Source of the DNA: Betaproteobacteria bacterium
Lineage (GTDB): Bacteria; Pseudomonadota; Gammaproteobacteria; Burkholderiales; Methylophilaceae
Direction of reading: 5' to 3'
Length of the DNA: 64,000 nucleotides
Assembly (NCBI GenBank): GCA_022599515.1
Contig: JAHZMC010000021.1
Location: 8,708-72,707 of the forward strand
In this document: piece by piece, positions 40,999 through 56,982 of the stretch
Layout: every line of letters begins with the position of its first letter
How positions within the stretch are numbered: position 1 is the stretch's first letter
Program-made: the position numbers and the translations under genes
Notes under the pieces: generated by a model
Seen by the model: the letters and a program-made list of their open reading frames with translations, nothing else
The model's database searches: none
Told to the model about the DNA's origin: nothing

Positions 40999-41487
40999 TT
41001 ACGCTAATAAACTGACTTTTACATCAACATGCATGGTGGCTTTATTTGATGGCAATCCCAAAAAACTCCCTGCAACTGGTGGGACAGCTTCAGGATTGCG
41101 GGCGACGGCAGTCGCAATATGTTTGCTACTGGTCACTTCTCCTGAGGTCGGGTCAAAGCCTTTCCAGCCAGTGCCAGGTAGATACACTTCTACCCAAGCA
41201 TGGGTGCTAGCATGGCCTTGCTCTGTCGCAGGCGCAACATCAATCTCATCAGCCGTTAAAATATCCGCAGAGGTCCGTATCGAAAATTCACCAGCAGGCG
41301 CAATTAAACGCTGACATAAATTACCATAATTGTCGGTATATTCCACCGCATGAATGCTGCTTGGTTTAAGTGTGTAAGACTCGCGCGCAATCCATTGCTG
41401 CAGGCCGCTACGTGGACGCAACATCAGTGTAAACGGTGTTTCGACGCTCACATCAAAAGTAATATCACAACCAGTACGAAGCCACAC
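40999..41487 (-). pseudogene. Transglutaminase-like protein lacking the catalytic Cys core (in-frame internal deletion)
   Basis: At 162 aa it is far shorter than the roughly 270-290 aa I recall for this family. It keeps an N-terminal Bact_transglu_N-like part (..DNYGNLCQR..) and the C-terminal His/Asp part (HAWVEVYLPGTGWKGFDPT). The segment that normally carries the nucleophile Cys (G.C.DF-type) is missing. Confidence 0.5.
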
Positions 41488-41570
41488 AGCATTTCCTTAA
41501 TAAAATGATTGATTGAAAGTAATAGAAAAGATTGTTAGCCGTTTGTATGAAAGTTAAAGCGACGGCTAAT

Positions 41571-41599
41571 AAAAAAAGCCAGTATACACTGGCTTTTTT
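41571..41599 (-). terminator. Rho-independent terminator after the TM-helix-repeat gene
   Basis: aaaaaaaGCCAGTatacACTGGCtttttt. A second hairpin (TTAGCCGT...ACGGCTAA) lies at 41535-41569. Confidence 0.8.
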
Positions 41600-41622
41600 A
41601 TTGTGAGCGACAGGATAATTGT

Positions 41623-43092
41623 TTATTTACCGTCACGCATTTTCTTAAACCAATATTCTAATTGTTTGCCAGCAGCTTCACGACCACCAAGGCCAAATGC
41701 TAGGGCAACGGCTACAGCAACTGAACCAAGGGTTAAGCCAAATGCCATGTTGACGATGTCATCTGCAATGCCCATTGCGCGTAGGCCCATTGCGACCACA
41801 AGGCCGACGATGGCAATGCGGGCGATATTGGCTAGGCCTGTTGATTTTTCGCCGCTTGCACGATCAATTGCATGGTAAGCAAGGTTGGCTAACCAGAAGC
41901 CAATGACTAGAATGACTGAGCCGAGTAGGATATCGCCACCAAACTGAATGAAGATGCTGACAATGTCGCTGACTTCTGAGAAGCCTAAACGATTGGCTGC
42001 TTCCACAGTGGCAAATAACATGGCAAAGAAAATGACGATTTTTCCAACAATGTCAGCGATTGTTGATTTTTTGTTAAATGTTTTTGCATAGCCTAGTTTC
42101 TCAGGCAGCTCGTTAAAACCGATGCTGGTGAGTAGATTGACAATCAGTGCGGCAACAAATTTAGCCACATAATAGGTGATGGTTAATATAACCGCTGCCG
42201 CTAAGATATTGGGCACCGCTTCAAACATCATGGAGAGCATATTGCTGGCTGGCTGAGAAACAGCACTCATTTGTAACGCATCTAAAGCGGCGATTAACGT
42301 TGGAATAAACACAAAGATAAACACCAACATACCAACAACGTTAGATAGTTTAATGGCGTTTTTACCATCCATATCCACTGCTTTTGAAACATTATCAATA
42401 CCGCTGGTTGCTAAAATATTGGTGACTAAACCGCGTAAAATTTTAGCAACAATCCAACCGACAAGTGCGATTACACCACCAGCAAAGATATTAGGAATCA
42501 TGACTAGAAATTCATCTACCATGCCTTGCACGGGTGCTAGTAAGCCGTTGAGTTCGAAGGTGGAAAGTAACGCAGGTAAGAACATTAAAATAATGATCCA
42601 AAACAGCATATTACCAACATTATTGCTCATTGGTTGCATGCCAGCTGCAGCGCTTAGTTTTTCGTCTAACTTGGTCGTTGCTAGTGCTTTAGTGACTATC
42701 AGTCTGACTAAAGTTGCAATTCCCCAAGCAATGGCTAGCAAAATTAATCCCGCAAAAATACGTGGTAAATATTCAAATATTTGCGTCACCATGACATTAA
42801 AAGGTTCAGAAACTGCTTGTAAATTTAAGCTACTAAATACGCCAATTAAAGTAATCAGTAGGATTAGAATAAAAGCGCCAAACGAGATGCCAGAAGCAAT
42901 ATCAACTTCTTGCCCCGTGCTTTCAGAGATTCTTTTGTTAATGCCTATCATGTTTAAAAAGCGGTTTAAGCCAGCGCGAACGAGTACAGCAATCAGCCAA
43001 CCACCTATCAACACAGCAAGCGCTCCAAAAATACCTGGTAGATGTTGACCCAATTGACCCTGCAAACTGTTCACAAGTGTAGAAAAGTCCAT
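41623..43092 (-). CDS. Conserved TM-helix-repeat (CmpX-like, mechanosensitive-channel-related) inner-membrane protein
   Basis: 489-aa polytopic protein made of repeated helix pairs of the type (..GGWIVAKILRGLVTNIL..GID..). Confidence 0.7.
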   Translation of the reverse strand: MDFSTLVNSLQGQLGQHLPGIFGALAVLIGGWLIAVLVRAGLNRFLNMIGINKRISESTGQEVDIASGISFGAFILILLITLIGVFSSLNLQAVSEPFNVMVTQIFEYLPRIFAGLILLAIAWGIATLVRLIVTKALATTKLDEKLSAAAGMQPMSNNVGNMLFWIIILMFLPALLSTFELNGLLAPVQGMVDEFLVMIPNIFAGGVIALVGWIVAKILRGLVTNILATSGIDNVSKAVDMDGKNAIKLSNVVGMLVFIFVFIPTLIAALDALQMSAVSQPASNMLSMMFEAVPNILAAAVILTITYYVAKFVAALIVNLLTSIGFNELPEKLGYAKTFNKKSTIADIVGKIVIFFAMLFATVEAANRLGFSEVSDIVSIFIQFGGDILLGSVILVIGFWLANLAYHAIDRASGEKSTGLANIARIAIVGLVVAMGLRAMGIADDIVNMAFGLTLGSVAVAVALAFGLGGREAAGKQLEYWFKKMRDGK

Positions 43093-43262
43093 TTGAAGTC
43101 CTCCTGAATTTTTATGAAATTGCAGATTCAGTTTACAACTAATTTCAGATAATACAAGGGAAAGGGGACAGTTAGCTGGGATTGGAGGCTAACGGTATCG
43201 TGGATATAAAGCGTAATTTAGGGGAGTATTCCCCTAAATTTTCTTAATGAGTTAGAAGTAAA

Positions 43263-43406
43263 TTATGTTCTCCATGGATGTTGTGGTAAATCACATTCAC
43301 CACATTTAGTCGCGCCAGCTACCGCAACGATATGGTCATTTTCAACCGTATCGCCACTCACACCAACAGCGCCAATCAGCATGCCAATCTGAAAAATCCA
43401 ACTATT
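43263..43406 (-). pseudogene. Remnant of a GlcG/DUF336 (heme-binding) gene, C-terminal end only
   Basis: The minus-strand translation ...[37 protein letters not shown]...* matches the conserved GlcG C-terminus ([11 protein letters not shown]...D..VA.A). A stop codon lies immediately upstream and there is no N-terminal part. Confidence 0.55.
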
Positions 43407-43438
43407 TCAATGACTTACTATTATCTTAGAAAACAAGC

Positions 43439-43495
43439 ATGCATTTTTTGCATGAAATGAAAGAAAGCATAATGGGTTCTATGCAAAATTTGCAG
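43439..43495. promoter_or_regulatory. Paired TGCA-N5-TGCA boxes (candidate enhancer/UAS) upstream of the cptA-like gene
   Basis: ATGCATTTTTTGCAT (43439-43453) and ATGCAAAATTTGCAG (43481-43495), 27 nt apart. They match the two boxes at 45461-45518 at 13/15 and 14/15 positions. Confidence 0.45.
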
Positions 43496-43595
43496 TTTTA
43501 TGTTGTTTATTACTCGCTTCGATTATTAAAATTAAAACAAGAATAACAATACGAATCAGTAATTTAGCTTGATTTAATTAATCGTTTACTAAACA

Positions 43596-43611
43596 TGGTA
43601 TTATCATTGCT
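43596..43611 (+). promoter_or_regulatory. Candidate sigma-54 (-24/-12) promoter of the cptA-like gene
   Basis: TGGTATtatcaTTGCT has GG-N10-GC spacing with TTGCT at -12. It lies 36 nt before the ATG at 43647, 101 nt downstream of the box pair, and is separated from it by an AT-rich tract. Confidence 0.5.
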
Positions 43612-43646
43612 CATAGCATTGGACAATTCAATCAATAAGCCATGAC

Positions 43647-45401
43647 ATGCAAACAATCAAGAAACTATTTAACAAGTCACTTTTTAGCAAGCTAGCAATT
43701 AACCCATCATCGTTAATGTCGTTTTTACTCTTTTGGTATCTCACCAGTATCACGCAATTGCTCATTAGTTTATCGGGTGCTGCCTCGTTTGAAGGCTTTA
43801 AAGATGCCACCATTACGGCATTTTTATGGATGATTCCTGTGCTGTTATTTCCGCAGCAGGTAAAAAGAATTACCGCAAGTTTAGGCATTATGCTTTGGCT
43901 ATTTGCGTTGCCTGGCTTTGGTTATTACCTTATTTATCATCAAGAATTAACGCAAAGTTTGATGTTTATTATTTTCGAATCTAATCAATCCGAATCAACC
44001 GAATATTTACAAAATTATTTGTCCATTGGGATTGTTTTAAGCTATATCGCGTTTACCTTAGTGCCTCTTTATATTTGGACAACAATAAAGCCTTATGAAA
44101 GCACAAGAAAACCAGCCAATATCACCAGCTTCATTTTAATAACACTTATTTTTATGACGCCTGTGAAACGTGCAATTCAATATGGTGACATTAATGCAGC
44201 TTATAAAAATTTAAATCGCCATTTGTCAGCGGCGCCGCCATGGCAACTTGGATTTGGCTACAGCAATTATCAGCGAGAGTTAAAAGAAGTCGAAGCACAA
44301 CTGCTCAATTTAAACAAAATTCCAGCGCTCAAAAATTTTACAGAAACGAAAAAAGAACTGCCGACAACAGTTGTGCTGGTGATTGGTGAATCGACGACGC
44401 GCGTACACATGGGCTTGTACGGCTATGGCCGAGACACGACGCCAAAACTTTCTAGCATGAAAGATGAATTAATGGTTTTTGACAATGTATTTGCATCCAG
44501 ACCAAATACGATTGAGAGTTTGGAGCAAGTGCTCACTTTCGCCAATCAAGCCCAGCCTGATTTATATAAAACCACGCCTTCTTTAATCGCCATGATGAAG
44601 CAAGCGGGTTATAAAACCTATTGGATTACCAATCAGCAAACGCTCACACAACGTAATACTATGCTCACCACGTTTGCCAAGCAAGCAGATGAACAGGTGT
44701 TTTTGAATCATGGGCGCCGTCAAAATTCTTATAGTTTTGATGCCAAAGTATTGGCACCATTTGCCGAGAAATTGCTTAAACAAGATGAAAAGAAACTCAT
44801 CATCGTCCATTTGCTCGGTACCCATATGAAGTACGCCTATCGATATCCAGCGGACTACAACTTTTTTAATAATGCAGAAGGTATACCTGAAGTCATTTCT
44901 GCCGATTCTGACAAAGTGACACTGGTGAATGAGTATGATAATGCCGTTCGTTATAACGATTACATTGTGCACGCACTGATTCAACAATTGAAACAATCAA
45001 CTGCAAGTGCTACACAGAGCTTATTGGTTTATTTTTCTGATCATGGAGAAGATGTCTATGACTCGGCGCCACACGCATTTAAAGGGCGCAATGAAGGCGC
45101 GCCAACCTACCCCATGTATGCCGTGCCATTTATCGTATGGCATTCGCCAAACTGGCAAAACGCGCAACAGCTAGCGGATTCTGCAATCCGTCACCGCCAG
45201 TATGATAATGCTGATTTTATTTACACGTGGTCAGATTTAATTGGGCTGACCTACGATGGTTATCGCGCAGATGAAAGTCTTATCAATAACGCATTTGGCG
45301 AAGATACCATCCTAGTAGGCGATCCTTATCATGGCAATTTGCACGTGCTCGATGGCACGATTAAACCAGTGAATCTGCCAGTGAATACGCAGAAAAACTA
45401 G
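43647..45401 (+). CDS. cptA: Phosphoethanolamine transferase, CptA/EptC type (LPS core heptose)
   Basis: Similar along its length to E. coli CptA as I recall it (..VLVIGESTTR..LYGY.R.TTP..., MKQAGYKTYWITNQQT, LIIVHLLGTHMKYAYRYP, YFSDHGE). It has an N-terminal TM domain and a sulfatase-fold domain. Confidence 0.85.
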   Translation: MQTIKKLFNKSLFSKLAINPSSLMSFLLFWYLTSITQLLISLSGAASFEGFKDATITAFLWMIPVLLFPQQVKRITASLGIMLWLFALPGFGYYLIYHQELTQSLMFIIFESNQSESTEYLQNYLSIGIVLSYIAFTLVPLYIWTTIKPYESTRKPANITSFILITLIFMTPVKRAIQYGDINAAYKNLNRHLSAAPPWQLGFGYSNYQRELKEVEAQLLNLNKIPALKNFTETKKELPTTVVLVIGESTTRVHMGLYGYGRDTTPKLSSMKDELMVFDNVFASRPNTIESLEQVLTFANQAQPDLYKTTPSLIAMMKQAGYKTYWITNQQTLTQRNTMLTTFAKQADEQVFLNHGRRQNSYSFDAKVLAPFAEKLLKQDEKKLIIVHLLGTHMKYAYRYPADYNFFNNAEGIPEVISADSDKVTLVNEYDNAVRYNDYIVHALIQQLKQSTASATQSLLVYFSDHGEDVYDSAPHAFKGRNEGAPTYPMYAVPFIVWHSPNWQNAQQLADSAIRHRQYDNADFIYTWSDLIGLTYDGYRADESLINNAFGEDTILVGDPYHGNLHVLDGTIKPVNLPVNTQKN

Positions 45402-45458
45402 CTTTAACCAAAACGCTAGCTAGGCCTATCGTCACGCCCATTCAGTAGCAACGTTAAC

Positions 45459-45520
45459 GCCTGCATTATTTGCATTACCTATAGCATTAGTCTCAATGGA
45501 TGCATGCAAAAGTTGCAGGC
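45459..45520. promoter_or_regulatory. Paired TGCA-N5-TGCA boxes (candidate enhancer/UAS) upstream of the methyltransferase-PAP2-eptA operon
   Basis: GCCTGCAttaTTTGCAT (45459-45475) and ATGCAAAagtTGCAGGC (45504-45520) form a 17-nt imperfect inverted pair (14/17), 28 nt apart. Confidence 0.5.
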
Positions 45521-45604
45521 TTCAATCCTATTTCACTATGCTTTAATTTTATTAAAGTCAAAATAAACAATAGGTTAAAAGATATTTTATTCAATTATTA
45601 CAGT

Positions 45605-45620
45605 TGGCATGCCGCTTGCT
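45605..45620 (+). promoter_or_regulatory. Candidate sigma-54 (-24/-12) promoter of the methyltransferase-PAP2-eptA operon
   Basis: TGGCATgccgcTTGCT is near-identical to the TGGCAC-N5-TTGCW consensus. It lies 40 nt before the ATG at 45660, with AAGGGA as the RBS. Confidence 0.65.
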
Positions 45621-45659
45621 CAATAGCCTTAGTCAGTGAACAAACACTAAGGGAAATAA

Positions 45660-46355
45660 ATGTTTAACCATGCAGGTAAAGCAGAACCGCAAGCCGAAGC
45701 AACATTAGCTTTCTCTAACAAATACGACCAACAACATGCGCAACAATATTTTGAAAAACATGATGATGGTATTTGGCGCAAACTATCCAATTGGCGCGAT
45801 CAGCAAATTGCTAGAAAAGCACTCAAAATAGCGGGCAATCCAAAATCGGTACTTGATACACCCTGCGGCACAGGTCGCTTTTGGGGTGTGCTTGCGGAAA
45901 ATAACAATAGAATTATTCACGCTAGTGATTACAAACAAACCATGATTGATGTTGGCGTGCTTAATCGTCCGCAATCAATCACTAAACGAATCAAACATTT
46001 TCAAGCCTCGGCGTTTGAATTGCCAGTGCCAGATCAATTTGTAGACAGTATTTTTTGCATGCGCTTCATACACCATTTGGGCGAATCTGCAGACAGAGTA
46101 AGGTTGCTAAAAGAGTTTCACCGCGTAACAAAAGAAACAGTGATTATTTCACTTTGGGTTGATGGCAATATCAAAGCAAAAAGAAGGTTGGCACTTGATC
46201 AAAAACGTCCTCCAAAAACGTATCAAAATCGCTTCGTTATTCCAGCTAAAACAATTGAAGAGGAGTTTAGAGCAAACGGATTTACAGTTATTGAAAAGCT
46301 TGATTTTTTAAAGCATTACCATATGTGGCGCACTTATGTAGTGCGTAAAGTCTAA
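45660..46355 (+). CDS. Class I SAM-dependent methyltransferase
   Basis: Motif I VLDTPCGTGRF with downstream motifs. 231 aa and soluble. Confidence 0.8.
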   Translation: MFNHAGKAEPQAEATLAFSNKYDQQHAQQYFEKHDDGIWRKLSNWRDQQIARKALKIAGNPKSVLDTPCGTGRFWGVLAENNNRIIHASDYKQTMIDVGVLNRPQSITKRIKHFQASAFELPVPDQFVDSIFCMRFIHHLGESADRVRLLKEFHRVTKETVIISLWVDGNIKAKRRLALDQKRPPKTYQNRFVIPAKTIEEEFRANGFTVIEKLDFLKHYHMWRTYVVRKV

Positions 46356-46373
46356 AACAGGTATAGTAATAAC

Positions 46374-47069
46374 ATGTTTTCTTTTAAAACGCTCAGAACA
46401 GCACTTTTTGTATTGTTATTCTCAGGTGTATTTTTTGCAGTAATCTCTCAGTTTACCAGCATTGATGTGAACATCGAAGATTACTATTACGACGCTCAGA
46501 AACACCAATTTATTTGGAAAAATAGCTGGTTTGCAAAGCAATTGATGCATACCTATGTCAAAGACGTGATTATCGTATTAGCGCTATTGCTTATCATTGT
46601 TGTAGTGGTCGATATAGGCAAACCAATCAGCAAAATAAGCGCATGGACGCGCATTAGGCTGCGGTTTGTAAGCGTTGCAGCGATTGTTATTCCCTCTTTT
46701 ATCTCTAGCGCAAAACAACTGTCAGTCATGCATTGCCCATGGGATGTTGAGCGCTATGGCGGTGCCGTGCCTTATCTAAGACTATTTGACATGATGCCAG
46801 CGCATATAAAAGCAGGTCATTGCTTTCCCGCAGGACATGCTTCAACAGGCTTGTGGTTGGCGGCATTTTGCGTCTTTTGGTTACCTTACCATCCGCGCAA
46901 GGCATTGCTGGTTTTTTTAGCGGGCTTGGGCGTTGGGTTTGTACTCGGCTGGGTGCAACAAATGCGGGGCGCGCACTTTCTTTCTCACACTTTATGGTCA
47001 GTGTGGATAGCCAGCGCCATTATTCTGCTCATGCTCTGTGTTAGCCAGTCATTCATCAATCGTCATTAA
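46374..47069 (+). CDS. PAP2 superfamily membrane phosphatase (LpxE/PgpB-like)
   Basis: Polytopic protein with PAP2 C2/C3-like motifs (FPAGHAS, MRGAHFLSHTLWS). Adjacent to eptA. Confidence 0.8.
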   Translation: MFSFKTLRTALFVLLFSGVFFAVISQFTSIDVNIEDYYYDAQKHQFIWKNSWFAKQLMHTYVKDVIIVLALLLIIVVVVDIGKPISKISAWTRIRLRFVSVAAIVIPSFISSAKQLSVMHCPWDVERYGGAVPYLRLFDMMPAHIKAGHCFPAGHASTGLWLAAFCVFWLPYHPRKALLVFLAGLGVGFVLGWVQQMRGAHFLSHTLWSVWIASAIILLMLCVSQSFINRH

Positions 47070-47086
47070 TTTTACAGAAACAAGTT

Positions 47087-48730
47087 ATGCTCAATACTCG
47101 CTTTACTAAACTCATCAATTCACAAACAGGCGCTATTTTCTTGGTTGTATTGTTTGTGATGCTTACCGCTAATATGTCGCTCTTTCAGCATATTGTAGAA
47201 ATTTACCCACTCAATCTGCGCAATATCCCGTTTTTAATTTCATTATCTATTTTTTTCAGCTTATTAACGGCTTTGTTTTTCATGGCAATTAGCTTCGGTA
47301 GAAAAGGTCGCTGGCTGATTGCTTTGCTATTAATCATCAGCGCGCAAGCCGCTTATTATATGGATAATTTCGGTGTATTGATGGATAGCGTGATGATAGA
47401 CAATATCATACATACCGACGCTAAAGAGGTGGAAGGTTTAGTGAATGTTGGTATGGTGATGCATCTCTTGTTGCTAGGCGTCTTGCCTGCTTGGTTGGTG
47501 ATTCGATATTGGCCAACAGTGAACAATATCAGTGCTGAGATTAAAACGCGGTTTTTGTGTTTATTGCTATTGATTATTGCACTTGTTGTCGTGGTATTGC
47601 CATTTACGGCGGGTTATACCAGCTTTATCCGTGAACATAAAATCACCCGTTTTTATGCTAATCCTACCTACCCAGTTTATTCATTAATCAAATATGCGCA
47701 ATTACAATTAAAGGACAAACAACAAGCTGACATCACAAAAACGGCAAATGATGCTCAATTTACAGAGGGGAGTATTAAAAATGAATTGGTGATTATGGTT
47801 GTTGGTGAAACCGCGCGAGCGGATAGATTCTCACTCAATGGCTATCACAAAGAGACAAACCCGCGCTTAGCAAAAGAAGATATTGTGAACTTTACCAATG
47901 TGAGTTCATGCGGTACTTCTACTGGCGTTTCAGTTCCGTGTATGTTTTCAGAATTAGGTCGAAAAGACTACGACAAGCAGAAAGCATTAAACCAAGAAAA
48001 TATATTGGATGTGTTAGCGAAAAACGGTATAGAAGTGTTATGGCGTGATAACAATTCAGATTCAAAAGGCGTTGCGACTAGGGTTCAATACGAGGATTTC
48101 AAAACGCCGACTCACAATCCTGTTTGTGAAGGTGAATGCAGAGACATTGGTATGTTGAGTGGGTTGGATGCTTATATAGCTTCTAAAAAAGGCAAAGATA
48201 TCATGATTGTGTTGCATCAAATGGGCAATCATGGCCCTGAATATTATCGCCGCTATCCAAAAGCATTCGCAAAATTTCAACCAATGTGTATGACAGGTGA
48301 ATTAAGAGATTGCACAAAAGAAGAGGTAAATAATAGTTACGATAATGCGATTTTATATACGGATTATTTTTTATCAGAAGTCATTCAATTCTTAAAAAAA
48401 TACGATGACGATTATGAAACGGCGATGTTGTATGTATCTGATCATGGTGAATCGCTAGGTGAAAATGGCGTTTGGTTGCATGCCGCACCTTATATGATGG
48501 CGCCAAAGACGCAAACGCATGTGCCAGCTATTTTGTGGTTAGGACAACACTTTGATTACAACATATCGCAAGCGGAAGTTTATAAAGACGCGCCATTAAG
48601 TCACGATGATTTATTTTGCACCTTACTCATCGCTTATGAGCTGGATGCGAAAACCTGTATTGCAAAAAGAGAGATGCTCATGAATAACTTAGCTATTCAA
48701 GCAGCGTTAACTATTGAGAAAAGGCGATAG
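47087..48730 (+). CDS. eptA: Phosphoethanolamine--lipid A transferase
   Basis: Five N-terminal TM helices and a sulfatase domain with EptA motifs (VVGETARADRFSLNGY, SCGTSTGVSVPCMFS, HQMGNHGPEYYRRYP, VSDHGESLGE). Confidence 0.88.
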   Translation: MLNTRFTKLINSQTGAIFLVVLFVMLTANMSLFQHIVEIYPLNLRNIPFLISLSIFFSLLTALFFMAISFGRKGRWLIALLLIISAQAAYYMDNFGVLMDSVMIDNIIHTDAKEVEGLVNVGMVMHLLLLGVLPAWLVIRYWPTVNNISAEIKTRFLCLLLLIIALVVVVLPFTAGYTSFIREHKITRFYANPTYPVYSLIKYAQLQLKDKQQADITKTANDAQFTEGSIKNELVIMVVGETARADRFSLNGYHKETNPRLAKEDIVNFTNVSSCGTSTGVSVPCMFSELGRKDYDKQKALNQENILDVLAKNGIEVLWRDNNSDSKGVATRVQYEDFKTPTHNPVCEGECRDIGMLSGLDAYIASKKGKDIMIVLHQMGNHGPEYYRRYPKAFAKFQPMCMTGELRDCTKEEVNNSYDNAILYTDYFLSEVIQFLKKYDDDYETAMLYVSDHGESLGENGVWLHAAPYMMAPKTQTHVPAILWLGQHFDYNISQAEVYKDAPLSHDDLFCTLLIAYELDAKTCIAKREMLMNNLAIQAALTIEKRR

Positions 48731-48771
48731 GGTAAAAACGATAATTAATTTCAAAAATATTGTTCACTTCA

Positions 48772-49266
48772 TTATTTTTCGCAACTTTGCAGTGACGGTT
48801 TGCTTTTGAGTATCTCGCCACCAGGCATGAGCCAAAATAAGCTTTGAACACGCTCATCCAGATTGCAAGCGTTAACATAACCGATAGCGCCTTTTGTGTT
48901 CGAAACATAGCGCAATACGGCTTCCTCTGAGTTAACAGAATAAGGGGGCAGTATCCCGTTAAAGTATTGACCGTTCCAATAATCAATTTGTGTTTCTGGT
49001 GAGCCACCTAAAACCGCTTCTGAAAATTGTATTCTTACGGCATTTTTCGCATTTAAATTGACGGGTTTAATTTGTATACCTTGCGGCCAAAAAAGTTGCT
49101 TACGCCAATAAATTAAATTTAAATTCTTGGCGCTCAGATTAAGTTCGCTAGCCTTTTGCTGGCTCGAAACAACCACAGCGATAATAGTTTGATTTTCCTT
49201 TGCTAAGGAAAGGCTGGGCAATATCATTGCACTTGCTACAATAAGAAACAAGAAGCGCCTATACAT
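48772..49266 (-). CDS. Small periplasmic PBP-like (PstS-type half-domain) protein
   Basis: Signal peptide and a PBP-like pattern (LNLIYWRKQLFWPQGIQIKPV..., GAIGYV). Its start overlaps the stop of the upstream barrel gene (TAATG). Confidence 0.6.
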   Translation of the reverse strand: MYRRFLFLIVASAMILPSLSLAKENQTIIAVVVSSQQKASELNLSAKNLNLIYWRKQLFWPQGIQIKPVNLNAKNAVRIQFSEAVLGGSPETQIDYWNGQYFNGILPPYSVNSEEAVLRYVSNTKGAIGYVNACNLDERVQSLFWLMPGGEILKSKPSLQSCEK

Positions 49267-50264
49267 TAGAAGAACAATGCAAATGAAGTTAAGAAACCAC
49301 GAGGTGATTCAGGCTGATCTCCGCTGCCACCAGTAAACTCAAACTTTAATAGTTGCGTGGGCTTAATGCGCCAAGTGGCGCCAACTAACCAGCGCTCTGC
49401 CGTTGCTTCATCTGGTCGTTGCAGGGTTTCTACACGGGTAATCCAATACCAATTATTAAAGCCGATTGGCTTTAAAGGCACGGCAGATTGTAGATAGGCG
49501 CCGCTACCGCCATCCTTATTTCTTATATCAAAGCGCTGAAAAAATTCACCACTGACTTCTACCTGTTTAATATGAGTAATAAAGTCTAAGCCAAGCATGC
49601 GGTAACTATTATCAATGCCCTTTTCGCGGAATGATAATATCGAGATGCCAATATCCGATTGATTTTTATAGCTAAATCTGGCCCCTTTTACATGCTCAAA
49701 GGCTAATTCATCTCCATCTTGCTGTTGGTCTTCTAACAATTCAGCAAAGATTTTGTATTCAAATGCACCATTCATAAATGGGGTTGCACCAAAAACCATG
49801 ACACCATTAGTGCCTTCTGGGAAAAGTCTAGAAGTGGCTAATGGACGTGTGCTGGTCCAAACGAGTGGAGGTGCGTGTAAAAGATTCCAGCGGCTATTTG
49901 GGGTTAAAAATCGTCCACCGCGAAAATTGACTTTTTCTGTGATGTTGTAATCTAAGTAAAGCCGCTCTAAATCAAAACGAGATTCCTGGTCGTGAAATTG
50001 CCGCTCATCATTCCAAGATAATGGATTTTCAAGTTCCAGTTCACCAAAAAAACTTAAACGACTATCGCCATTCCATGTCACCAGTAAACTGACTTCATTC
50101 AACGCTGCTTGGGCTTCTTGATCTCTTTCTAATGTCAGGCCAGCACTGGAGTAACCGCCGATATTAAACCCATCAAGCCAGCTAGGTGTATCATCAGCAA
50201 ATACGTGCTTGCACAGACAGAGCAGGCTAGCTAAACTGGTGAATATAATGATAAATTTTTTCAT
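49266..50264 (-). CDS. Uncharacterised outer-membrane beta-barrel (porin-like) protein
   Basis: Signal peptide (..CKHVFA/DD), alternating amphipathic strands and a C-terminal aromatic residue (..SFALFF). Confidence 0.6.
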   Translation of the reverse strand: MKKFIIIFTSLASLLCLCKHVFADDTPSWLDGFNIGGYSSAGLTLERDQEAQAALNEVSLLVTWNGDSRLSFFGELELENPLSWNDERQFHDQESRFDLERLYLDYNITEKVNFRGGRFLTPNSRWNLLHAPPLVWTSTRPLATSRLFPEGTNGVMVFGATPFMNGAFEYKIFAELLEDQQQDGDELAFEHVKGARFSYKNQSDIGISILSFREKGIDNSYRMLGLDFITHIKQVEVSGEFFQRFDIRNKDGGSGAYLQSAVPLKPIGFNNWYWITRVETLQRPDEATAERWLVGATWRIKPTQLLKFEFTGGSGDQPESPRGFLTSFALFF

Positions 50265-50364
50265 ATTGATTTCAATTGTTGGATCTTTAACGCTTACTCT
50301 GCGTAATAAGAAGACCGCGTCAAATGGAATTGTCTCATTACATGCTTAATAAAAGAAATAATCA

Positions 50365-52032
50365 ATGTTAAAAAGATTAAGTATTAAGCAATTATTGTTG
50401 CTGGCCTTTTTGTTAGCGGGCTTGCTGCCGGCGATGTTAGTCAGTTTTTTAAGTTTCTATCAAAGCCGTTCTGTTCTCAAGCAAGAAATTACGCGTGATA
50501 TGCAAACATTGAGCACGGCAGTTGCCAATGATATGGAGCGCATGATGTTTGAACGTTTGCGCAATGTGCAATCATGGAGTCAGCTCTCTATTATGCAAGA
50601 GCTCAAAATTGGGGATATTGATAAACGCTTATCTGTTTTTTTGAATGGTTTAGCACAGAGTTACGGCAATATTTACCATGTCATTTATGTTGAAGATTTG
50701 CAACATAGGGTGATTGCCAGCAGTAATGCTAAGAAAATCGGACTACAAAATCAGCCTCAGCCGCCTTGGTTTTCTGCCAGCTTATCTGGCAGGTCATTAA
50801 GTATTGCTAAAATCAACGGCAATGTTTTAGCGATTTCTGCAGAAATTATTGATGAAACGACCAACATTCCTATGGGTCAGCTTGTGGTCGAATTTAACTG
50901 GGATATCGTGCAAAATGCACTGAATAATGTGATCAAAAAACCAACAGCAGCAGCATTGCTAGATACGAATGGCAATGTGTTGGCGGCGACCTCAAATTGG
51001 GCAGAAATTCATTCTGGATATGGTATGTATGCGATTAGTCAATTTAGTCAGCAATCACCAATGCCCCAATGGCGGGTGCAAGTTGAAAAGCTACACTCCA
51101 TAGCAGTCGCGCCTGTACATAAATTGGGCCATATCTTTTTGGGTTTGTTGGCGGCAACTTTGCTATTGGCCGCGTTAATGGTCAGGCCGATTGCACAAGC
51201 TATTACGCAACCAATCTCGCAATTAACCCAATTTGTAAAAGGTTTTGCGCGACAAACAAAGGCGAAACCGCCACAGTCTGGGCCACCAGAAGTACGTGAG
51301 TTAGTCGCTGCTTTTGAAACGATGACAGAAGATTTAGCCAAGTCGCAAGAAAAGCTAACGCGCGCTGCAAAGCTAGCGGTTGTTGGTGAAATGGCTGCGG
51401 CGATGAGTCATGAAGTGCGCACGCCGCTAGGCATATTACGTTCTTCAGCGGATGTATTAAAGCGCGAAAAAACCTTATCTGACGAAGGTAGAGAAGTGCT
51501 GACGTTTATTGGCGCAGAAACAGAGCGGCTCAATAAATTAGTATCTACTTTAATTGATGCGGCGCGTCCGCGTTTGCCTATTTTTTCTCAGCTTAACTTA
51601 ACAGAATTAATCGCCAATACAGTCGCCATGTTGCGGAATCAAGCGCAGGCAAAACAGATTCATCTGACATTTGATCGCCAAACGCCGACGGTAACCGCAG
51701 CGGTTGATGCAGACCAAATGACGCAAGTCATGATGAATTTAATCATGAATGCAATACAAGTGTTGCCAGAAGGCGGACATATTATGATTGTGTTAGAACA
51801 TATCGGTCATCAAGCGGTGATTCGTGTGGAAGATGATGGCGAAGGGATTAGCGAGGAACATCAGGCGCAGATTTTTGAGCCATTTTTTACTAAACGTGCA
51901 GGCGGTGTTGGTTTGGGATTGGCGGTGGTGCGACAAATTGTATTGGCGCATGGCGGTGAAATTCATTATCAAACCAGCCAAATGCATGGCGCGCAGTTTA
52001 CAATTCTCATTCCAATACAACAGGCAAGTTAA
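50365..52032 (+). CDS. Sensor histidine kinase with a periplasmic (Cache-like) domain, HAMP, HisKA and HATPase domains
   Basis: Two TM segments flank a loop of about 230 aa. H-box (MSHEVRTPL) and N/G boxes (NLIMNAIQ, DDGEGI, GGVGLGLAV) are present. Confidence 0.88.
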   Translation: MLKRLSIKQLLLLAFLLAGLLPAMLVSFLSFYQSRSVLKQEITRDMQTLSTAVANDMERMMFERLRNVQSWSQLSIMQELKIGDIDKRLSVFLNGLAQSYGNIYHVIYVEDLQHRVIASSNAKKIGLQNQPQPPWFSASLSGRSLSIAKINGNVLAISAEIIDETTNIPMGQLVVEFNWDIVQNALNNVIKKPTAAALLDTNGNVLAATSNWAEIHSGYGMYAISQFSQQSPMPQWRVQVEKLHSIAVAPVHKLGHIFLGLLAATLLLAALMVRPIAQAITQPISQLTQFVKGFARQTKAKPPQSGPPEVRELVAAFETMTEDLAKSQEKLTRAAKLAVVGEMAAAMSHEVRTPLGILRSSADVLKREKTLSDEGREVLTFIGAETERLNKLVSTLIDAARPRLPIFSQLNLTELIANTVAMLRNQAQAKQIHLTFDRQTPTVTAAVDADQMTQVMMNLIMNAIQVLPEGGHIMIVLEHIGHQAVIRVEDDGEGISEEHQAQIFEPFFTKRAGGVGLGLAVVRQIVLAHGGEIHYQTSQMHGAQFTILIPIQQAS

Positions 52033-52034
52033 GC

Positions 52035-53393
52035 ATGGACACCCAAAAACGTATTCTCGCAGTTGATGATGAGCCGAATATGCGGCGCTTGCTGGAGATT
52101 AGTTTGCGTCAAGCAGGCTATCAAGCGTTGACCGCCGCCAATGGAAGAGAGGCATTAGAGACCCTCAAAACAGAGCAAGTGGATTTGGTCGTTAGCGATT
52201 TGCACATGCCGGGCATGAGCGGTTTAGAGTTGCTTAAACAAATGCGCGCAGACAGTGATGCCATTCCTTTTATTATGGTAACGGCACAAGGTGAAATTAA
52301 TACCGCAGTTGAGGCGATGAAGTTAGGCGCGGCGGATTATATCTTGCGCCCTTTTGATTTAGAGGTGCTGGAAGTTGCAATTGCCAAAGCTCTAGATATC
52401 CAAAGATTACAGCTTGAAAACACCTATTTAAAATCGACAACGCAACCGATTGTGCAAGGCCTAATTGGCGAAAGTTTAGCGATGCAAACATTGAAGCAAA
52501 TGATCGCACAAGTCGCGCCAGAAAAAGCCACCGTATTAATTGCAGGTGAAACAGGCACAGGTAAAGAGCTTGTTGCAAAAGCCATTCATACCGCCTCGAG
52601 TAGAAAAGACGGTTTATTTGTTGCGGTCAATTGCGCGGCGATACCCGCAGATATGTTGGAATCTGAGTTATTTGGCTATGAAAAAGGCGCTTTCACAGGC
52701 GCAGTTAAAACACGGGTCGGTAAATTTGAATTGGCAGATAAAGGCACACTATTCTTAGATGAAATTACTGAGATGCCTATCCATTTGCAAGCTAAGCTAC
52801 TACGTGCATTGCAAGAAGGTGTAATTGAAAAATTAGGCAGTAATAAACAAATTGCTTTGGATAACCGCATTGTTGCGGCCACCAACCGCGATGCCATGCA
52901 AGCGGTCAAAGATGGTAAGTTGCGAGAAGATTTATATTATCGATTGAATGTATTTCAGTTGAATGTACCCGCCTTAAAAGAACGTACAGGCGATGTGGCT
53001 TTATTAAGTCATTTCTTTTTGGCCAAGCGTGAGGGTGAAGAACGTAGCGCTCAAATAAGTGATGAAGCAATGCAGCAGTTACAACGTTATGATTGGCCTG
53101 GTAATGTGCGTGAGCTAGAAAATGTACTAGAGCGCGCTTCTATATTGTCATCAGGCGGTCAGATTGAAACGCATCATTTGCCGAGTGATATTGTAGGCAA
53201 TACTATCAGCGCAGTAGATAATACGACGCTACAAAATGATTTTTCCATCCCAGCGCAAACACAAAGGCTAGAGAAAAAACTAATCACTGAAGCAATTGAG
53301 CGTTGTAATGGCAATAAAGCAAAAGCAGCCAAATTACTCGAGATTAGTGAACGCTCACTCTGGTATAAGCTAGATCAATACCAACTAAAATAA
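52035..53393 (+). CDS. Sigma-54-dependent response regulator (NtrC-family enhancer-binding protein)
   Basis: REC domain (DDEPNM..D..MPGMSG), an AAA+ domain with GETGTGKE and the GAFTGA loop (EKGAFTGA), and a C-terminal Fis-type HTH. Confidence 0.92.
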   Translation: MDTQKRILAVDDEPNMRRLLEISLRQAGYQALTAANGREALETLKTEQVDLVVSDLHMPGMSGLELLKQMRADSDAIPFIMVTAQGEINTAVEAMKLGAADYILRPFDLEVLEVAIAKALDIQRLQLENTYLKSTTQPIVQGLIGESLAMQTLKQMIAQVAPEKATVLIAGETGTGKELVAKAIHTASSRKDGLFVAVNCAAIPADMLESELFGYEKGAFTGAVKTRVGKFELADKGTLFLDEITEMPIHLQAKLLRALQEGVIEKLGSNKQIALDNRIVAATNRDAMQAVKDGKLREDLYYRLNVFQLNVPALKERTGDVALLSHFFLAKREGEERSAQISDEAMQQLQRYDWPGNVRELENVLERASILSSGGQIETHHLPSDIVGNTISAVDNTTLQNDFSIPAQTQRLEKKLITEAIERCNGNKAKAAKLLEISERSLWYKLDQYQLK

Positions 53394-53580
53394 ATGAAAA
53401 TAAACATGCTAACGGTATTGTTTTTGCCAGCGCTCTATGCAGCATGGTTTAAAATCAGCGTACCAAAAGAGGCGGAGCCAATATTTGCACAAGAAGTTAC
53501 AGAATAATGGTTGTAAGTGCTAATACTGTTTTACACTATCGCATATACAAAACAAAGAGTCGGAATAACTAGGTTTAACT

Positions 53581-54255
53581 ATGACATCAGTACAAAAAAG
53601 TCTCGGTAACGAGCAAGCACGTTTTAATATGATTGAACAACAAATTCGCACATGGGAAGTATTAGATCCCAATGTGTTGCAACTGTTGCATAAAGTGCCA
53701 CGTGAACATTTTGTGCCAGAAGCCTATCAAGGCTTGGCGTTTGCTGATATTGAAATACCGCTGATTGATGGGCAGTCTATGTTGTCACCTAAATTAGAGG
53801 CACGGATTTTACAGTCGTTGGCGATTAAACCCAGCGATCAAGTTTTGCATATAGGCACTGGTAGCGGTTACTTCACCGCTCTACTCGCCAACATGGCGGC
53901 ACATGTCTATTCAGTTGAAATTAACGCTGAGTTAAGTGCAGCAGCCGCATACAAATTAGCAGAGCATGATATTCATAATGTGACGATTGAACTAGGTAAT
54001 GGTATTGATGGACTAAAAGCACACCAACCTTATGATGTCATTGTGTTAACTGGATCATCCCCAGTTGAGCCATTAAACTTACGTGATCAATTAGCCATCG
54101 GCGGCAGCTTGTTTGTGGTGTTAGGGTCTGCACCAGCGATGGAAGCAACGTTAATTACGCGGGTTTCTGAAACGGGCTTTAATAAACAAGTGATTTTTGA
54201 AACTTGTCTACCTGAATTAGCAAATGCGCCGCAAGGGAATACGTTTAGTTTCTAA
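53581..54255 (+). CDS. Protein-L-isoaspartate O-methyltransferase family protein
   Basis: SAM motif VLHIGTGSGYFTALLA. The pcm-like/tolC gene pairing is conserved in proteobacteria. Confidence 0.85.
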   Translation: MTSVQKSLGNEQARFNMIEQQIRTWEVLDPNVLQLLHKVPREHFVPEAYQGLAFADIEIPLIDGQSMLSPKLEARILQSLAIKPSDQVLHIGTGSGYFTALLANMAAHVYSVEINAELSAAAAYKLAEHDIHNVTIELGNGIDGLKAHQPYDVIVLTGSSPVEPLNLRDQLAIGGSLFVVLGSAPAMEATLITRVSETGFNKQVIFETCLPELANAPQGNTFSF

Positions 54256-54277
54256 GTGATTGTTTCTAATTAAATTA

Positions 54278-55813
54278 ATGAAAAAATTAATCATCTTTTT
54301 AGTATTAATGACGTCAAATATGACATTTGCCGCATTTGATTTGATGCTGTCTAAACTGTTAGTCAGCATTGATCCTATGGTGATTGAGAACGAAGCACTG
54401 CCTTTAAAACAACAAACTTTGTTCGATGTTTATCATCAAACCTCGGCTAATGATCCTGCCTTATTAGGTTTGGTCATGACAATAAAGTTGGCGGCACTTG
54501 ATACGCCTTCAGCGACAAAGTTTGTTGGGCGCTTCAAACAGCAGACTTTGCTCGACATTTATCAGCAAGCTTTAGCCAATGACCCAACATTGGCTTCTGC
54601 CTTAAGTGGCAATCAATCAGCCCATGAGTTGATTGAGCAAAGTAACGCACTGTATCGGCCAAAAGTGAATTTAAGCGCGAGCGCGAGTGCTTCTGAAACC
54701 AATATTGAATTTATTGGGGCCAGTATTTTTCGTGGTGATGGGCGCCAATCTTTTGAAAGTCGCAGATACGCATTAGAGGCAAGACAGCCCATTTTCCGTA
54801 AGGATAGCTGGGTGAAAATGAAACAAGCCAGAACACAAGTCAGTCAGGCTGATAAGCAATATCATTTAAGCCAACAAGATCTTATTTTGCGCGTCACTGA
54901 GGCTTACTTTGATGTGTTAATTGCACAAGATCAAATGGATTTAATTCAAGCGCAAAAGACGGCCATACTTGGTCAATTAAAACAAGCGCAGGCTAATTTC
55001 GAAGTGGGCACTTCCACCATTACCGATGTGAATGAAGCGCAAGCACGGTTTGATTTAGTGGTTTCACAAGAGATTGCGGCAGAAAATGATTTCCTCATCG
55101 CAAAAAGAGCGATAGAAGCCATCACCAATGAAGAGCCACAAAAATTAGCCACAGTGAAATCGGATATTAAAGTCGCCGTTTTAGGTCAAACCATCGAAGA
55201 TTGGCAGCAAGTGGCTCTTGAAAATAATTTAAATGTGCAAATTCAGCAAGATAATTTAGCGATTGCTGAGCAAGAAATCTCAGCAGCAAAAGCAGGGCAT
55301 TTACCGACGTTAGACGCGGTTGCTAGTTTCAGTAATAACTATGCAAACGGCAGTGCTAACGGCTTTGGTAGTGATTTAGATAATGCCACTATCGGCGTCG
55401 AGGTAAACGTACCCATTTATCAAGGTGGTTCAATTAGTTCAGCAGTAAGACAAGCGATGTACGATAAGCAAAAAGCGCAAAATGAATTAGATGTGACTTT
55501 GCGTAAGGCAAGCTTAGAAACACAGCGTAATTACCTAAACTTAGGCAGTAGCATTGCGCAAGTACGTGCCTTAGAGCAAGCCTTATCAAGTAGTCAAAGT
55601 CAGCTAGATTCAACCACATTGGGTTATGAAGTGGGTGTGCGAACCAGCGTTGATGTGTTGGATGCGCAGCAACAATTATTTTCGGCTAAACGTGATTTAT
55701 TACAAGCAAGATACAGTTATTTAGTGAATATTATCCGTCTTAAATTTGTGACGGGCTTGGTCTCTGTTGAAGATTTAGAAGAAATTAATAATCAATTGGT
55801 TGTAGGTAGTTAA
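54278..55813 (+). CDS. tolC: TolC family outer-membrane efflux channel
   Basis: Signal peptide MKKLIIFLVLMTSNMTFA, and two OEP repeats with the ALANDPTL...Y.PKV pattern. The start is set at the ATG at 54278. Confidence 0.88.
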   Translation: MKKLIIFLVLMTSNMTFAAFDLMLSKLLVSIDPMVIENEALPLKQQTLFDVYHQTSANDPALLGLVMTIKLAALDTPSATKFVGRFKQQTLLDIYQQALANDPTLASALSGNQSAHELIEQSNALYRPKVNLSASASASETNIEFIGASIFRGDGRQSFESRRYALEARQPIFRKDSWVKMKQARTQVSQADKQYHLSQQDLILRVTEAYFDVLIAQDQMDLIQAQKTAILGQLKQAQANFEVGTSTITDVNEAQARFDLVVSQEIAAENDFLIAKRAIEAITNEEPQKLATVKSDIKVAVLGQTIEDWQQVALENNLNVQIQQDNLAIAEQEISAAKAGHLPTLDAVASFSNNYANGSANGFGSDLDNATIGVEVNVPIYQGGSISSAVRQAMYDKQKAQNELDVTLRKASLETQRNYLNLGSSIAQVRALEQALSSSQSQLDSTTLGYEVGVRTSVDVLDAQQQLFSAKRDLLQARYSYLVNIIRLKFVTGLVSVEDLEEINNQLVVGS

Positions 55814-55818
55814 ATAAG

Positions 55819-56370
55819 ATGACTACCCAATTGATTCGCGCTACCAAAAGCCAGTTAGCGATTATTGATGTGCAAAGTAAGCTTTGTGCGGTAATGCCAG
55901 CTGAAATGCAAGCCGTGACCAAAAACATCAGTATCTTGTTGCAAGCAGCACATCATTTGCAAGTGCCAGTATTGGTAACGGAACAATATCCGCAAGCATT
56001 GGGTGAGACTGTGCCAGAAATTGCGCAACACTTTGTTGCCATTAAACCCATAGAGAAAATGGCTTTTTCTGCTTATGCTGAACCTAAATTTAAAGCGCAA
56101 TGTCAGCGCGATAAATCACAAATCATCTTAGCAGGCTTAGAAACGCACATTTGCGTTTTGCAAACGGCACTTGATTTAATCGCGCAAGGCAAGCAAGTCA
56201 TCGTGGTTGAAGATGCTGTTATTTCACGCAATGTTGATAATAAGCGCAATGCTATTAATCGACTAGCGAATGCAGGTTGCATCATCGCCAATACAGAATC
56301 AGTGGTATTTGAATGGCTTGGTCACGCCAAGCACGAAGCGTTTAAGGAAATCGCCAAACTGATTAAATAA
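55819..56370 (+). CDS. Isochorismatase-family hydrolase
   Basis: 183 aa with the catalytic region LAGLETHICVLQTALDL. Confidence 0.8.
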   Translation: MTTQLIRATKSQLAIIDVQSKLCAVMPAEMQAVTKNISILLQAAHHLQVPVLVTEQYPQALGETVPEIAQHFVAIKPIEKMAFSAYAEPKFKAQCQRDKSQIILAGLETHICVLQTALDLIAQGKQVIVVEDAVISRNVDNKRNAINRLANAGCIIANTESVVFEWLGHAKHEAFKEIAKLIK

Positions 56371-56385
56371 GCGGATAGGTGTAAT

Positions 56386-56982
56386 TTGAACTGGAAGCTC
56401 ATTCTTTTTATCGCGCTCATTGGCTATGGCGCTTATCAACATTTTAATCAGCGCCCTGTGGTTTATGGTGACGGCGTTGTGGCGAAGCAGCTACCACTCC
56501 AATCGAATACTAACGACGTAAAATTTGAGCATAGCGGCTATACCATTACGCCGTTACAATCCTTTGAAATTGAAGCGCGTATTTTATCGACAAAATATTA
56601 CACGTTTGATCGAGGCGCCGATTTATCACCAGTTGATTTAGCCTTGGGTTGGGGTCGCATGTCAGATGAGGCTGTCTTAAAAAAGATAGAGATTAGTCAA
56701 AGCGGTCGTTTTTATTATTGGCGGGTCAATGAATTTCCGATTCCGCGTAAAGAGATTGAAACCCATAGTGCAAATATGCATTTGGTACCTGCCAATTCAC
56801 AAATAGAAAGCCTATTAAAAAACGTCAAGCCAGGTCAAGTTGTGCGTATTCAAGGCGATTTAATACAAGCAAATGCAGCTGATGGCTGGCACTGGAAAAG
56901 CTCGCTCAGCCGTAATGATATAGGTGCTGGCGCTTGTGAATTAGTCTGGGTTAAAACGTTTAGCGTTAAACCGCTAAGCTAA
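56386..56982 (+). CDS. Membrane-anchored conserved hypothetical protein
   Basis: TTG start with AGGTG 6 nt upstream, an N-terminal TM helix and no recognisable motif. Its stop codon overlaps the convergent waaA stop codon. Confidence 0.55.
   Translation: MNWKLILFIALIGYGAYQHFNQRPVVYGDGVVAKQLPLQSNTNDVKFEHSGYTITPLQSFEIEARILSTKYYTFDRGADLSPVDLALGWGRMSDEAVLKKIEISQSGRFYYWRVNEFPIPRKEIETHSANMHLVPANSQIESLLKNVKPGQVVRIQGDLIQANAADGWHWKSSLSRNDIGAGACELVWVKTFSVKPLS

Follow-up and report, generated by a model that had tools for sequence, protein, structure and literature searches.

Genes and probable promoter elements of the locus

The stretch of DNA analysed here, referred to below as the window, comprises 64,000 nucleotides of a Methylophilaceae contig (GenBank JAHZMC010000021.1). 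It carries, on the + strand, a gene for a lipopolysaccharide (LPS) core phosphoethanolamine transferase, cptA, followed by three genes for an S-adenosylmethionine (SAM) methyltransferase, a PAP2 protein and the lipid A phosphoethanolamine transferase EptA, Table 1. The last three genes are separated by gaps of 17–18 nt and form an operon (45660–48730). The subject of the analysis was the 258-nt gap in front of the methyltransferase gene, where a first-pass annotation had placed a promoter for sigma-54 (RpoN) together with an upstream enhancer for an enhancer-binding protein (EBP). The promoter is called PMT here, and a second module found in front of cptA is called PcptA.

The annotation had described a match to the sigma-54 consensus TGGCAC-N5-TTGCW, complete but for one position and lying shortly before the ATG, and this was borne out. 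The −24/−12 element of PMT, TGGCATgccgcTTGCT (also written TGGCATGCCGCTTGCT), matches at 10 of the 11 specified positions and has its GG at 45606–07 and its GC at 45618–19 with exactly 10 nt between them. It is intergenic and is separated by 39 nt from the methyltransferase ATG at 45660, a start codon backed by the N-termini of homologues (MLNHAFKVE..., MNNQALKIEPQ...). The sole departure from the consensus, C to T at the sixth base, is real, but TGGCAT has to be regarded as the norm in this lineage because T occupies the sixth position in 25 of the 29 modules described below. Transcription is predicted to start at about 45631, which would give a leader of 29 nt. Scoring with a sigma-54 position weight matrix (PWM), which the annotation had proposed as a check, gave the PMT element 18.9 bits with an approximate Barrios-type matrix, the highest value anywhere in the window (128 kb scanned over the two strands; the runner-up scored 14.1 bits). 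The experimentally established sigma-54 promoter of E. coli atoD scored 18.3 bits with the same matrix, so the PMT element is level with it. Only two copies of TGGYAYN5TTGCW were found in the window, both of them intergenic and 35–39 nt before a start codon.

Upstream of this element are two inverted arms, GCCTGCATTATTTGCAT and ATGCAAAAGTTGCAGGC, which were found exactly as annotated at 45459–75 and 45504–20, 28 nt apart and each containing TGCA-N5-TGCA. The arms are complementary at 14 of 17 positions over 17 nt, and a repeat finder reported 77% over 22 nt. Each is in itself a 13-bp palindrome with an A/T centre (TGCA-W5-TGCA; TGCAttattTGCA in the distal and TGCAaaagtTGCA in the proximal arm), the size expected for one helix-turn-helix (HTH) dimer, and the two centres are 43 bp apart. 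The outer GCC/GGC flanks, from which the long-range inverted repeat of PMT arises, are not conserved in other promoters. The annotation had treated the arms as a dyad enhancer. The arms and their reading as an enhancer stand, but the single dyad does not, since each arm is self-palindromic and the flanks are unconserved elsewhere; the PMT enhancer is more aptly described as a pair of dimer sites separated by about four helical turns, called here upstream activator sites (UAS) 1 and 2. Each 13-bp palindrome is probably bound by one activator dimer. The motif TGCAWWWNWTGCA has seven matches in the window, counting both strands, and all of them are at the four upstream sites of PMT and PcptA.

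The DNA between UAS2 and the −24/−12 element is AT-rich, as the annotation had said, with a GC content of 0.19 against 0.415 for the window, although its length is 84 nt rather than about 87 nt. Within it is a box, AAACAATAGGTTA, resembling the integration host factor (IHF) consensus WATCAANNNNTTR; the core of the box, AACAAT...TTAA, has been kept across the PMT alignments. At the aligned position of PcptA a perfect WATCAANNNNTTR was found in two related loci, L001 and L004, and a copy with one mismatch in the window and in L006. A role for IHF between the activator sites and the promoter may be suggested by these boxes.

The layout of PMT is repeated in front of cptA, where the module at 43440–43611 comprises two TGCA-N5-TGCA sites, an IHF-like box and a −24/−12 element. 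PcptA scored 12.2 bits in the window and 14.7–17.0 bits in its orthologues. The frequency with which such an architecture arises by chance was estimated by requiring a sigma-54 PWM score of at least 12 bits with at least two TGCA-N5-TGCA sites 60–250 nt upstream. The real window contains two such arrangements; at least one was found in 1 of 1000 windows simulated with a first-order Markov model and two in none of the 1000.

Some further similarities between and around the modules were observed. The sequence directly after the −12 element is alike in both promoters of the window, TTGCTCAATAGCCTTAGTCA compared with TTGCTCATAGCATTGGACA (45623–45634 and 43607–43625), and a 12-nt near-repeat between UAS1 and UAS2, ATAGCATTAGTC at 45481–45492, resembles the sequence at 45623–45634. 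The likeness and the near-repeat are consistent with the modules being duplicated cassettes. Elsewhere in the window a sigma-54-like site of 11.5 bits, AGGCGCGAAAATTGCT at 20668–20683, is intergenic and lies about 350 nt upstream of an open reading frame (ORF) at 21035, which precedes ORFs of 1559 and 475 aa. Judged by their size alone, the latter two may be gltB and gltD.

Table 1. Features of the window. Positions are those of the window; a strand is given where one applies.
Feature	Position	Strand	Remarks
cptA UAS pair, TGCAtttttTGCA (43440–52) and TGCAaaattTGCA (43482–94)	43440–43494		Centres 42 bp apart; conserved in L001, L004, L006 and L084
PcptA IHF-like box, AATCAGTAATTTA	43554–43566		One mismatch in window; centred at about −62
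PcptA sigma-54 promoter, TGGTATtatcaTTGCT	43596–43611	+	35 nt before cptA ATG; predicted start at about 43622
cptA (eptC-type LPS core phosphoethanolamine transferase)	43647–45401	+	NCBIfam CptA subfamily, 673 bits against cut-off 404
Box ACGCCCATTCA	45434–45444		Some 15 nt before UAS1; same in window and L001, conserved in part in L086 and L156
UAS1 (distal) of PMT, arm GCCTGCATTATTTGCAT	45459–45475		Core palindrome 45462–45474; centre at about −163
UAS2 (proximal) of PMT, arm ATGCAAAAGTTGCAGGC	45504–45520		Core palindrome 45505–45517; centre at about −120
AT-rich spacer of PMT	45521–45604		84 nt
PMT IHF-like box, AAACAATAGGTTA	45565–45577		One mismatch from WATCAANNNNTTR; centred at about −60
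PMT sigma-54 −24/−12 element, TGGCATgccgcTTGCT	45605–45620	+	10 of 11 consensus positions; 18.9 bits; conserved in L001, L086 and L156
Inverted repeat CCTTAGT/ACTAAGG in 5' untranslated region (UTR)	45627–45652	+	Overlaps Shine-Dalgarno AAGGGA (45649–54); −8.3 kcal/mol
SAM methyltransferase, PP0903 family	45660–46355	+	231 aa; first gene of target operon
PAP2 lipid A phosphatase-like gene	46374–47069	+	Target operon
EptA, lipid A phosphoethanolamine transferase	47087–48730	+	NCBIfam P_eth_NH2_trans, 614 bits against cut-off 500
Two conserved secreted proteins	48772–50264	−	Divergent from kinase gene; always adjacent to kinase–EBP pair
Sensor histidine kinase	50365–52032	+	Periplasmic dCache-like region, HisKA, HATPase_c; candidate cognate sensor
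NtrC-family response regulator (EBP)	52035–53393	+	Response_reg, Sigma54_activat (1e-71), AAA_lid_14, HTH_8, GAFTGA; candidate activator of both promoters

Conservation of the modules in Methylophilaceae

The methyltransferase family is widespread, and the genomic loci closest to that of the window belong to Methylophilaceae and Methylotenera. High-scoring sigma-54 sites with TGCA-N5-TGCA in front of the methyltransferase gene were found in Methylophilaceae loci only and not in those of Methylophaga, Accumulibacter or Pseudomonas. Altogether 29 modules of the same geometry were found in 12 Methylophilaceae loci, and the GG and GC of the −24/−12 element are invariant in all of them, as is the TGCA..TGCA of the activator sites. 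The two activator sites are spaced by 42±1 bp across the modules save for one irregular module with three sites in L089; among 12 orthologous or paralogous site pairs both the TGCA..TGCA and the 42±1 bp spacing are kept in every one. The distances from the UAS centres to the TGG fall into three fixed classes, of 150/108 nt for cptA-type promoters, 138/96 nt for methyltransferase-type promoters and 103/61 nt for a divergent promoter. The −12 element lies 33–57 nt before the start codon in most modules, with a full range of 11–173 nt. The consensus of the distal site is cMTGCATTTTTTGCATGAA and that of the proximal site MTGCAAArTTTGCAG.

Besides cptA and the methyltransferase gene, the module precedes PAP2 genes (L002, L087), eptA (L008, L009) and a divergent operon with T_hemolysin, AMP-binding, Haem_oxygenas_2, SDR and HbpS-like genes. 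In footprint alignments of PMT (window, L001, L086, L156) and PcptA (window, L001, L004, L006), conservation is confined to UAS1, UAS2, the IHF-like box, the −24/−12 element and the leader while the surrounding DNA has diverged, and the UAS1 core forms a conserved island in the four-way PMT alignment. The gene cluster itself, consisting of cptA, methyltransferase, PAP2, eptA, two genes of unknown function, kinase and EBP, keeps its synteny, wholly or partly, in L001, L002, L004, L007, L084 and L087. A scan of metagenomes for the pattern UAS-N(28-31)-UAS returned mostly chance matches; among the matches listed, true modules were those of L156 and L193 only.

Several observations have to be set against a functional promoter at PMT. 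The matrix used for scoring approximates the Barrios-type consensus and is not the published one. All of the supporting loci are from one family, so the counts given above are phylogenetically non-independent. The IHF-like boxes of the window each carry one mismatch, and matches of this kind are common in AT-rich DNA. The gene rpoN was not found in the 64-kb window, the presence of sigma-54 in the lineage being suggested by the conserved GAFTGA activator and the conserved −24/−12 elements. Matches to TGGCAC-N5-TTGCW with one mismatch number four in the window where 5.0 are expected, that is, they are at chance level. No terminator was found between cptA and PMT in the window, and PMT is therefore probably an additional internal promoter. 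Lastly, L084, whose flanks are 98% identical to those of the window, has no alignable counterpart of window positions 45363–45690. In its place are 191 bp of unrelated sequence (L084 7849–8039), in which the gap of 75 nt between cptA and the methyltransferase gene is promoterless. As L084 is without PMT, this segment must be dispensable and the four genes there must be read from PcptA.

The chance-level matches and the state of L084 are what would be expected if the −24/−12 match were fortuitous, transcription of the operon coming from cptA read-through, a sigma-70 promoter or both, and the palindromes being sites for an ordinary repressor or activator or part of an RNA hairpin or terminator behind cptA. 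The folding of the two arms as RNA, at −22.3 kcal/mol with z = −2.46, could also be taken in favour of this explanation. However, the GG and GC are invariant in all 29 modules at fixed distances from the palindromes, most of them at the short distance from a start codon given above, and several modules stand before the first gene of an operon or are paired divergently, arrangements that leave no possibility of read-through. No sigma-70-like consensus site was found on the + strand of the gap (45402–45659). The hairpin has no U-tract and was equalled in folding by 6 of 200 shuffled sequences, the mutual complementarity of the PcptA sites is limited to their own palindromes, and a search of 43050–45750 gave no Rfam match; an RNA element or terminator formed from the arms was thus rejected. 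A fortuitous match is accordingly considered very improbable.

The annotation had called the arrangement the classical EBP/sigma-54 architecture, and this description gains support from the paralogous module at PcptA, the conserved elements of the orthologous loci, the IHF-like boxes and a nearby activator with GAFTGA and HTH_8. It is concluded from the sequence that 45459–45620 is very probably a functional sigma-54-dependent promoter with an EBP enhancer of two upstream activator sites, serving genes for LPS modification. From the elements and their conservation we infer that transcription in vivo would depend on sigma-54.

A second inverted repeat, CCTTAGT/ACTAAGG, is present in the 5' UTR, Table 1. 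It is kept in four sequences, and the one A to G change, in L156, preserves a G.U pair. Because the predicted start at about 45631 lies inside the 5' arm, the hairpin could form only in transcripts reading through from PcptA, in which it would possibly mask the ribosome-binding site.

Traces of recombination were also observed at the locus. The PMT cassette is within a mosaic segment. Identity to L084 is 98% in the flanks and only 89.8% in cptA, and the cassette, for which L084 has no counterpart, is shared with L001, L086 and L156, which are less closely related. The pattern suggests that the cassette was gained or lost through recombination among close strains. Also missing from the window is a 4.4-kb divergent operon (T_hemolysin PF12261, AMP-binding ligase, Haem_oxygenas_2, SDR and HbpS-like genes; window 43263–43390, L084 1474–5864), which is present in the close relative L084 and also in L001, L086 and L087. 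An ORF for a 39-aa C-terminal remnant of HbpS is left at 43263–43382 on the − strand, and 8 bp at the deletion junction, GCATGCCA (43379–86), are shared with the −24 element that belonged to the lost divergent sigma-54 promoter. The shared bases suggest that microhomology mediated the deletion and that the divergent promoter was cut between its −24 and −12 elements.

Candidate activator and comparison with known systems

The window encodes a single EBP. Its gene lies 3.3 kb past eptA and directly follows that of a sensor histidine kinase. Compared along its whole length, the protein shares 45% identity with E. coli AtoC, the HTH included. The kinase–EBP pair is still linked to the regulon in the rearranged loci L003 and L005 (GC 57–58%, EBP 63–64% identical), where it is beside a sigma-54 promoter with the related repeats CCTGCAAATTTCGTAT. 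A scan of gene content in L003 showed, behind this sigma-54 promoter, one long operon of genes for T_hemolysin, acyl-AMP ligase, Haem_oxygenas_2, SDR, TPR, methyltransferase, LPS kinase (Kdo/WaaP), a sulfatase-family transferase and PAP2. Within this operon of a higher-GC member of the Methylophilaceae (L003 5485–14263) the methyltransferase gene is followed by that of the LPS kinase of the Kdo/WaaP family. The same pairing occurs in the ColR-regulated PP0903-PP0904 (inaA/wapQ) operon of Pseudomonas (PMC2689224).

Between eptA and the kinase gene are the genes of two secreted proteins. That of 332 aa ends in ...FALFF, has a sub-threshold match to Porin_5 (E = 0.066) and is a putative outer-membrane beta-barrel, and that of 164 aa has a sub-threshold match to PBP_like_2 (E = 0.0055) and phosphate-binding proteins and appears to be a PBP-like periplasmic protein. 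They may be accessories of sensing or a sensing module. Their operon has its own sigma-54 promoter in L003 and L005 (14.2–18.8 bits), and no such promoter was found in the window at 50265–50364.

The EBP, paired with the kinase, is likely to be the activator of PMT and PcptA, an assignment which is drawn from the linkage and from the analogy to AtoC and is to that extent open to objection. Modules with the same activator sites exist in L008, L009 and L089 with no EBP or kinase–EBP pair within 10 kb on either side, and L089 and L090 have an OmpR-type two-component system as neighbour. These loci would be explained if the sigma-54 and enhancer elements are real but are served by another EBP encoded elsewhere in the genome. 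The pair in question is, however, the sole source of an EBP in the window and is linked to the target genes in every close-relative locus of sufficient length, a linkage that survives the rearrangement of L003 and L005. Furthermore AtoC, the closest characterised relative of the EBP, binds a very similar palindrome, TGCA-N6-TGCR. A different activator is therefore thought unlikely, and the local EBP remains the preferred candidate. Counting the EBP orthologue against the two-site module over 80 genome loci gave 4/2/1/73, the loci again being phylogenetically non-independent.

In L089 (461–6276) and L090 (3654–9451) the methyltransferase–PAP2–eptA genes adjoin the OmpR-type system, which consists of a PhoQ-like kinase and a Trans_reg_C regulator. 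The ATG there is preceded, at 37 nt, by a sigma-54-like site, TGGCATattacCTGCT, which has a single TGCA-T6-GCA palindrome 138 nt upstream. Such an arrangement may represent dual or transitional regulation.

The closest known parallel is the atoDAEB operon of E. coli with its AtoSC system. The atoD promoter has the sites ATGCAGAAATTTGCAC and GTGCGCAATTTTCTGCAT, an AT-rich stretch and then TGGCACtccccTTGCT, and binding of AtoC to the atoD palindrome has been verified experimentally (PMC3118216). In both systems paired A/T-centred palindromes of TGCA type at about −110 to −150 are followed by an AT-rich stretch and TGGCAC/T-N5-TTGCT, and in both an NtrC-family regulator is encoded beside its kinase, AtoC being the best NCBIfam match of the EBP. 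They differ in that the half-sites are spaced by N5 here and by N6 in atoD and that the sites are 42 bp apart here and abutting in atoD. The kinase of the window, unlike AtoS, has a dCache-like periplasmic sensor, and the targets here are the LPS-modification genes for methyltransferase, PAP2, EptA and CptA instead of genes for the catabolism of acetoacetate and short-chain fatty acids. Orthology with AtoSC was rejected, the EBP scoring 473 bits where the AtoC cut-off is 714, and the kinase 196 where that for AtoS is 646. Because the scores are below the equivalog cut-offs and the targets differ, the system is a mechanistic analogue of AtoSC and not its orthologue.

The same layout is familiar from textbook sigma-54 promoters such as NtrC-glnAp2, nifH and Pu, in which a −24/−12 element is preceded by two dimer sites on the same face of the DNA more than 100 bp upstream with an IHF site or intrinsic bend between. 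The NtrC site, TGCACC-N5-GGTGCA (17 bp), and the physiological output are different.

By their output genes, the modules resemble the ColRS and PmrAB systems. PmrAB (BasRS) controls eptA and cptA in enteric bacteria. These systems likewise consist of a dedicated two-component system for the modification of LPS charge, but their regulators are of the OmpR/PhoB family and act at sigma-70 promoters, whereas a −24/−12 element with a remote enhancer is found here. ColR directly activates PP0903 of P. putida by way of a T-tract box some 60 nt ahead of the start codon (PMC2689224), and eptA of P. aeruginosa is a direct ColR target with pap2 among the candidate promoters tested (PMC13524251). The methyltransferase of the window is 52–58% identical to its homologues in Pseudomonas loci, in several of which the methyltransferase gene is preceded at about 44 nt by T-tract sequences of TGACATTTTTTTCACA type. 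The strict ColR consensus was found upstream of the homologue in 6 of 44 loci among L028–L080, nearly all of them from Pseudomonas.

Control of the window genes by a PmrA box (YTTAAK-N5-YTTAAK) or a ColR box (YYNASNNYTTTTTSAC) was considered and rejected, the only matches being at chance level, with one mismatch and on the wrong strand. A scan of the neighbouring ORFs (40999–56982) revealed no Trans_reg_C regulator.

Proposed mechanism and its meaning

The following sequence of events is proposed for PMT. Sigma-54 RNA polymerase would bind TGGCAT-N5-TTGCT as a closed complex that is unable to open without an AAA+ activator. Each UAS would probably take up a dimer of the NtrC-family response regulator, the active oligomer assembling on phosphorylation; the two sites should be on the same face of the DNA because their centres, 43 bp apart, are separated by about four helical turns. 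The spacer of 19% GC, with its IHF-like box at about −60, would bend the DNA so that the activator meets sigma-54 and opens the complex by hydrolysis of ATP. The output would be transcription of methyltransferase, PAP2 and eptA, while the module at 43440–43611 would drive cptA. If both promoters are under one system, they would therefore constitute a small regulon remodelling the charge of LPS and lipid A, its chemistry being addition of phosphoethanolamine and removal or modification of phosphate. If PmrAB and ColRS are a guide, metal cations or cationic envelope stress may serve as the signal.

On a wider view, it is suggested, with slightly more for the idea than against it, that Methylophilaceae have replaced the OmpR-type control of LPS charge (PmrAB/ColRS) by a dedicated sigma-54 system. 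This would comprise a dCache kinase with beta-barrel and PBP-like partners, an AtoC-like EBP and a portable cassette of about 200 bp, arranged UAS-UAS-IHF-(−24/−12), at no fewer than five genes or operons (at least 5: cptA, methyltransferase, PAP2, eptA, T_hemolysin/acyl-AMP-ligase), which is gained and lost between strains with flanks 98% identical. If true, it would be the first sigma-54-dependent phosphoethanolamine-transferase regulon and a case of promoter-cassette shuffling rewiring an envelope-stress regulon.

The sigma-54 mechanism is textbook. Its control of eptA/cptA-type genes appears to be undescribed because no account of control by sigma-54, rpoN or an EBP was found in the open-access literature for eptA, cptA, phosphoethanolamine transferases or lipid A, nor for Methylotenera or Methylophilaceae, although such an absence does not prove novelty. 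Resistance to polymyxin and cationic peptides depends on phosphoethanolamine transferases of the EptA/MCR and CptA types. To our knowledge, every well-studied case is under an OmpR-family two-component system acting at sigma-70 promoters (PmrAB, PhoPQ, ColRS, MisRS). With an environmental methylotroph as host and a textbook mechanism, the practical importance is limited. For the biology of the family, a tightly switched sigma-54 route would add a new regulatory logic for envelope remodelling and would assign a binding site and a regulon to an AtoC-like activator so far uncharacterised. It would also provide a natural example of one promoter/enhancer cassette being reused at several genes and being present or absent between near-identical strains.

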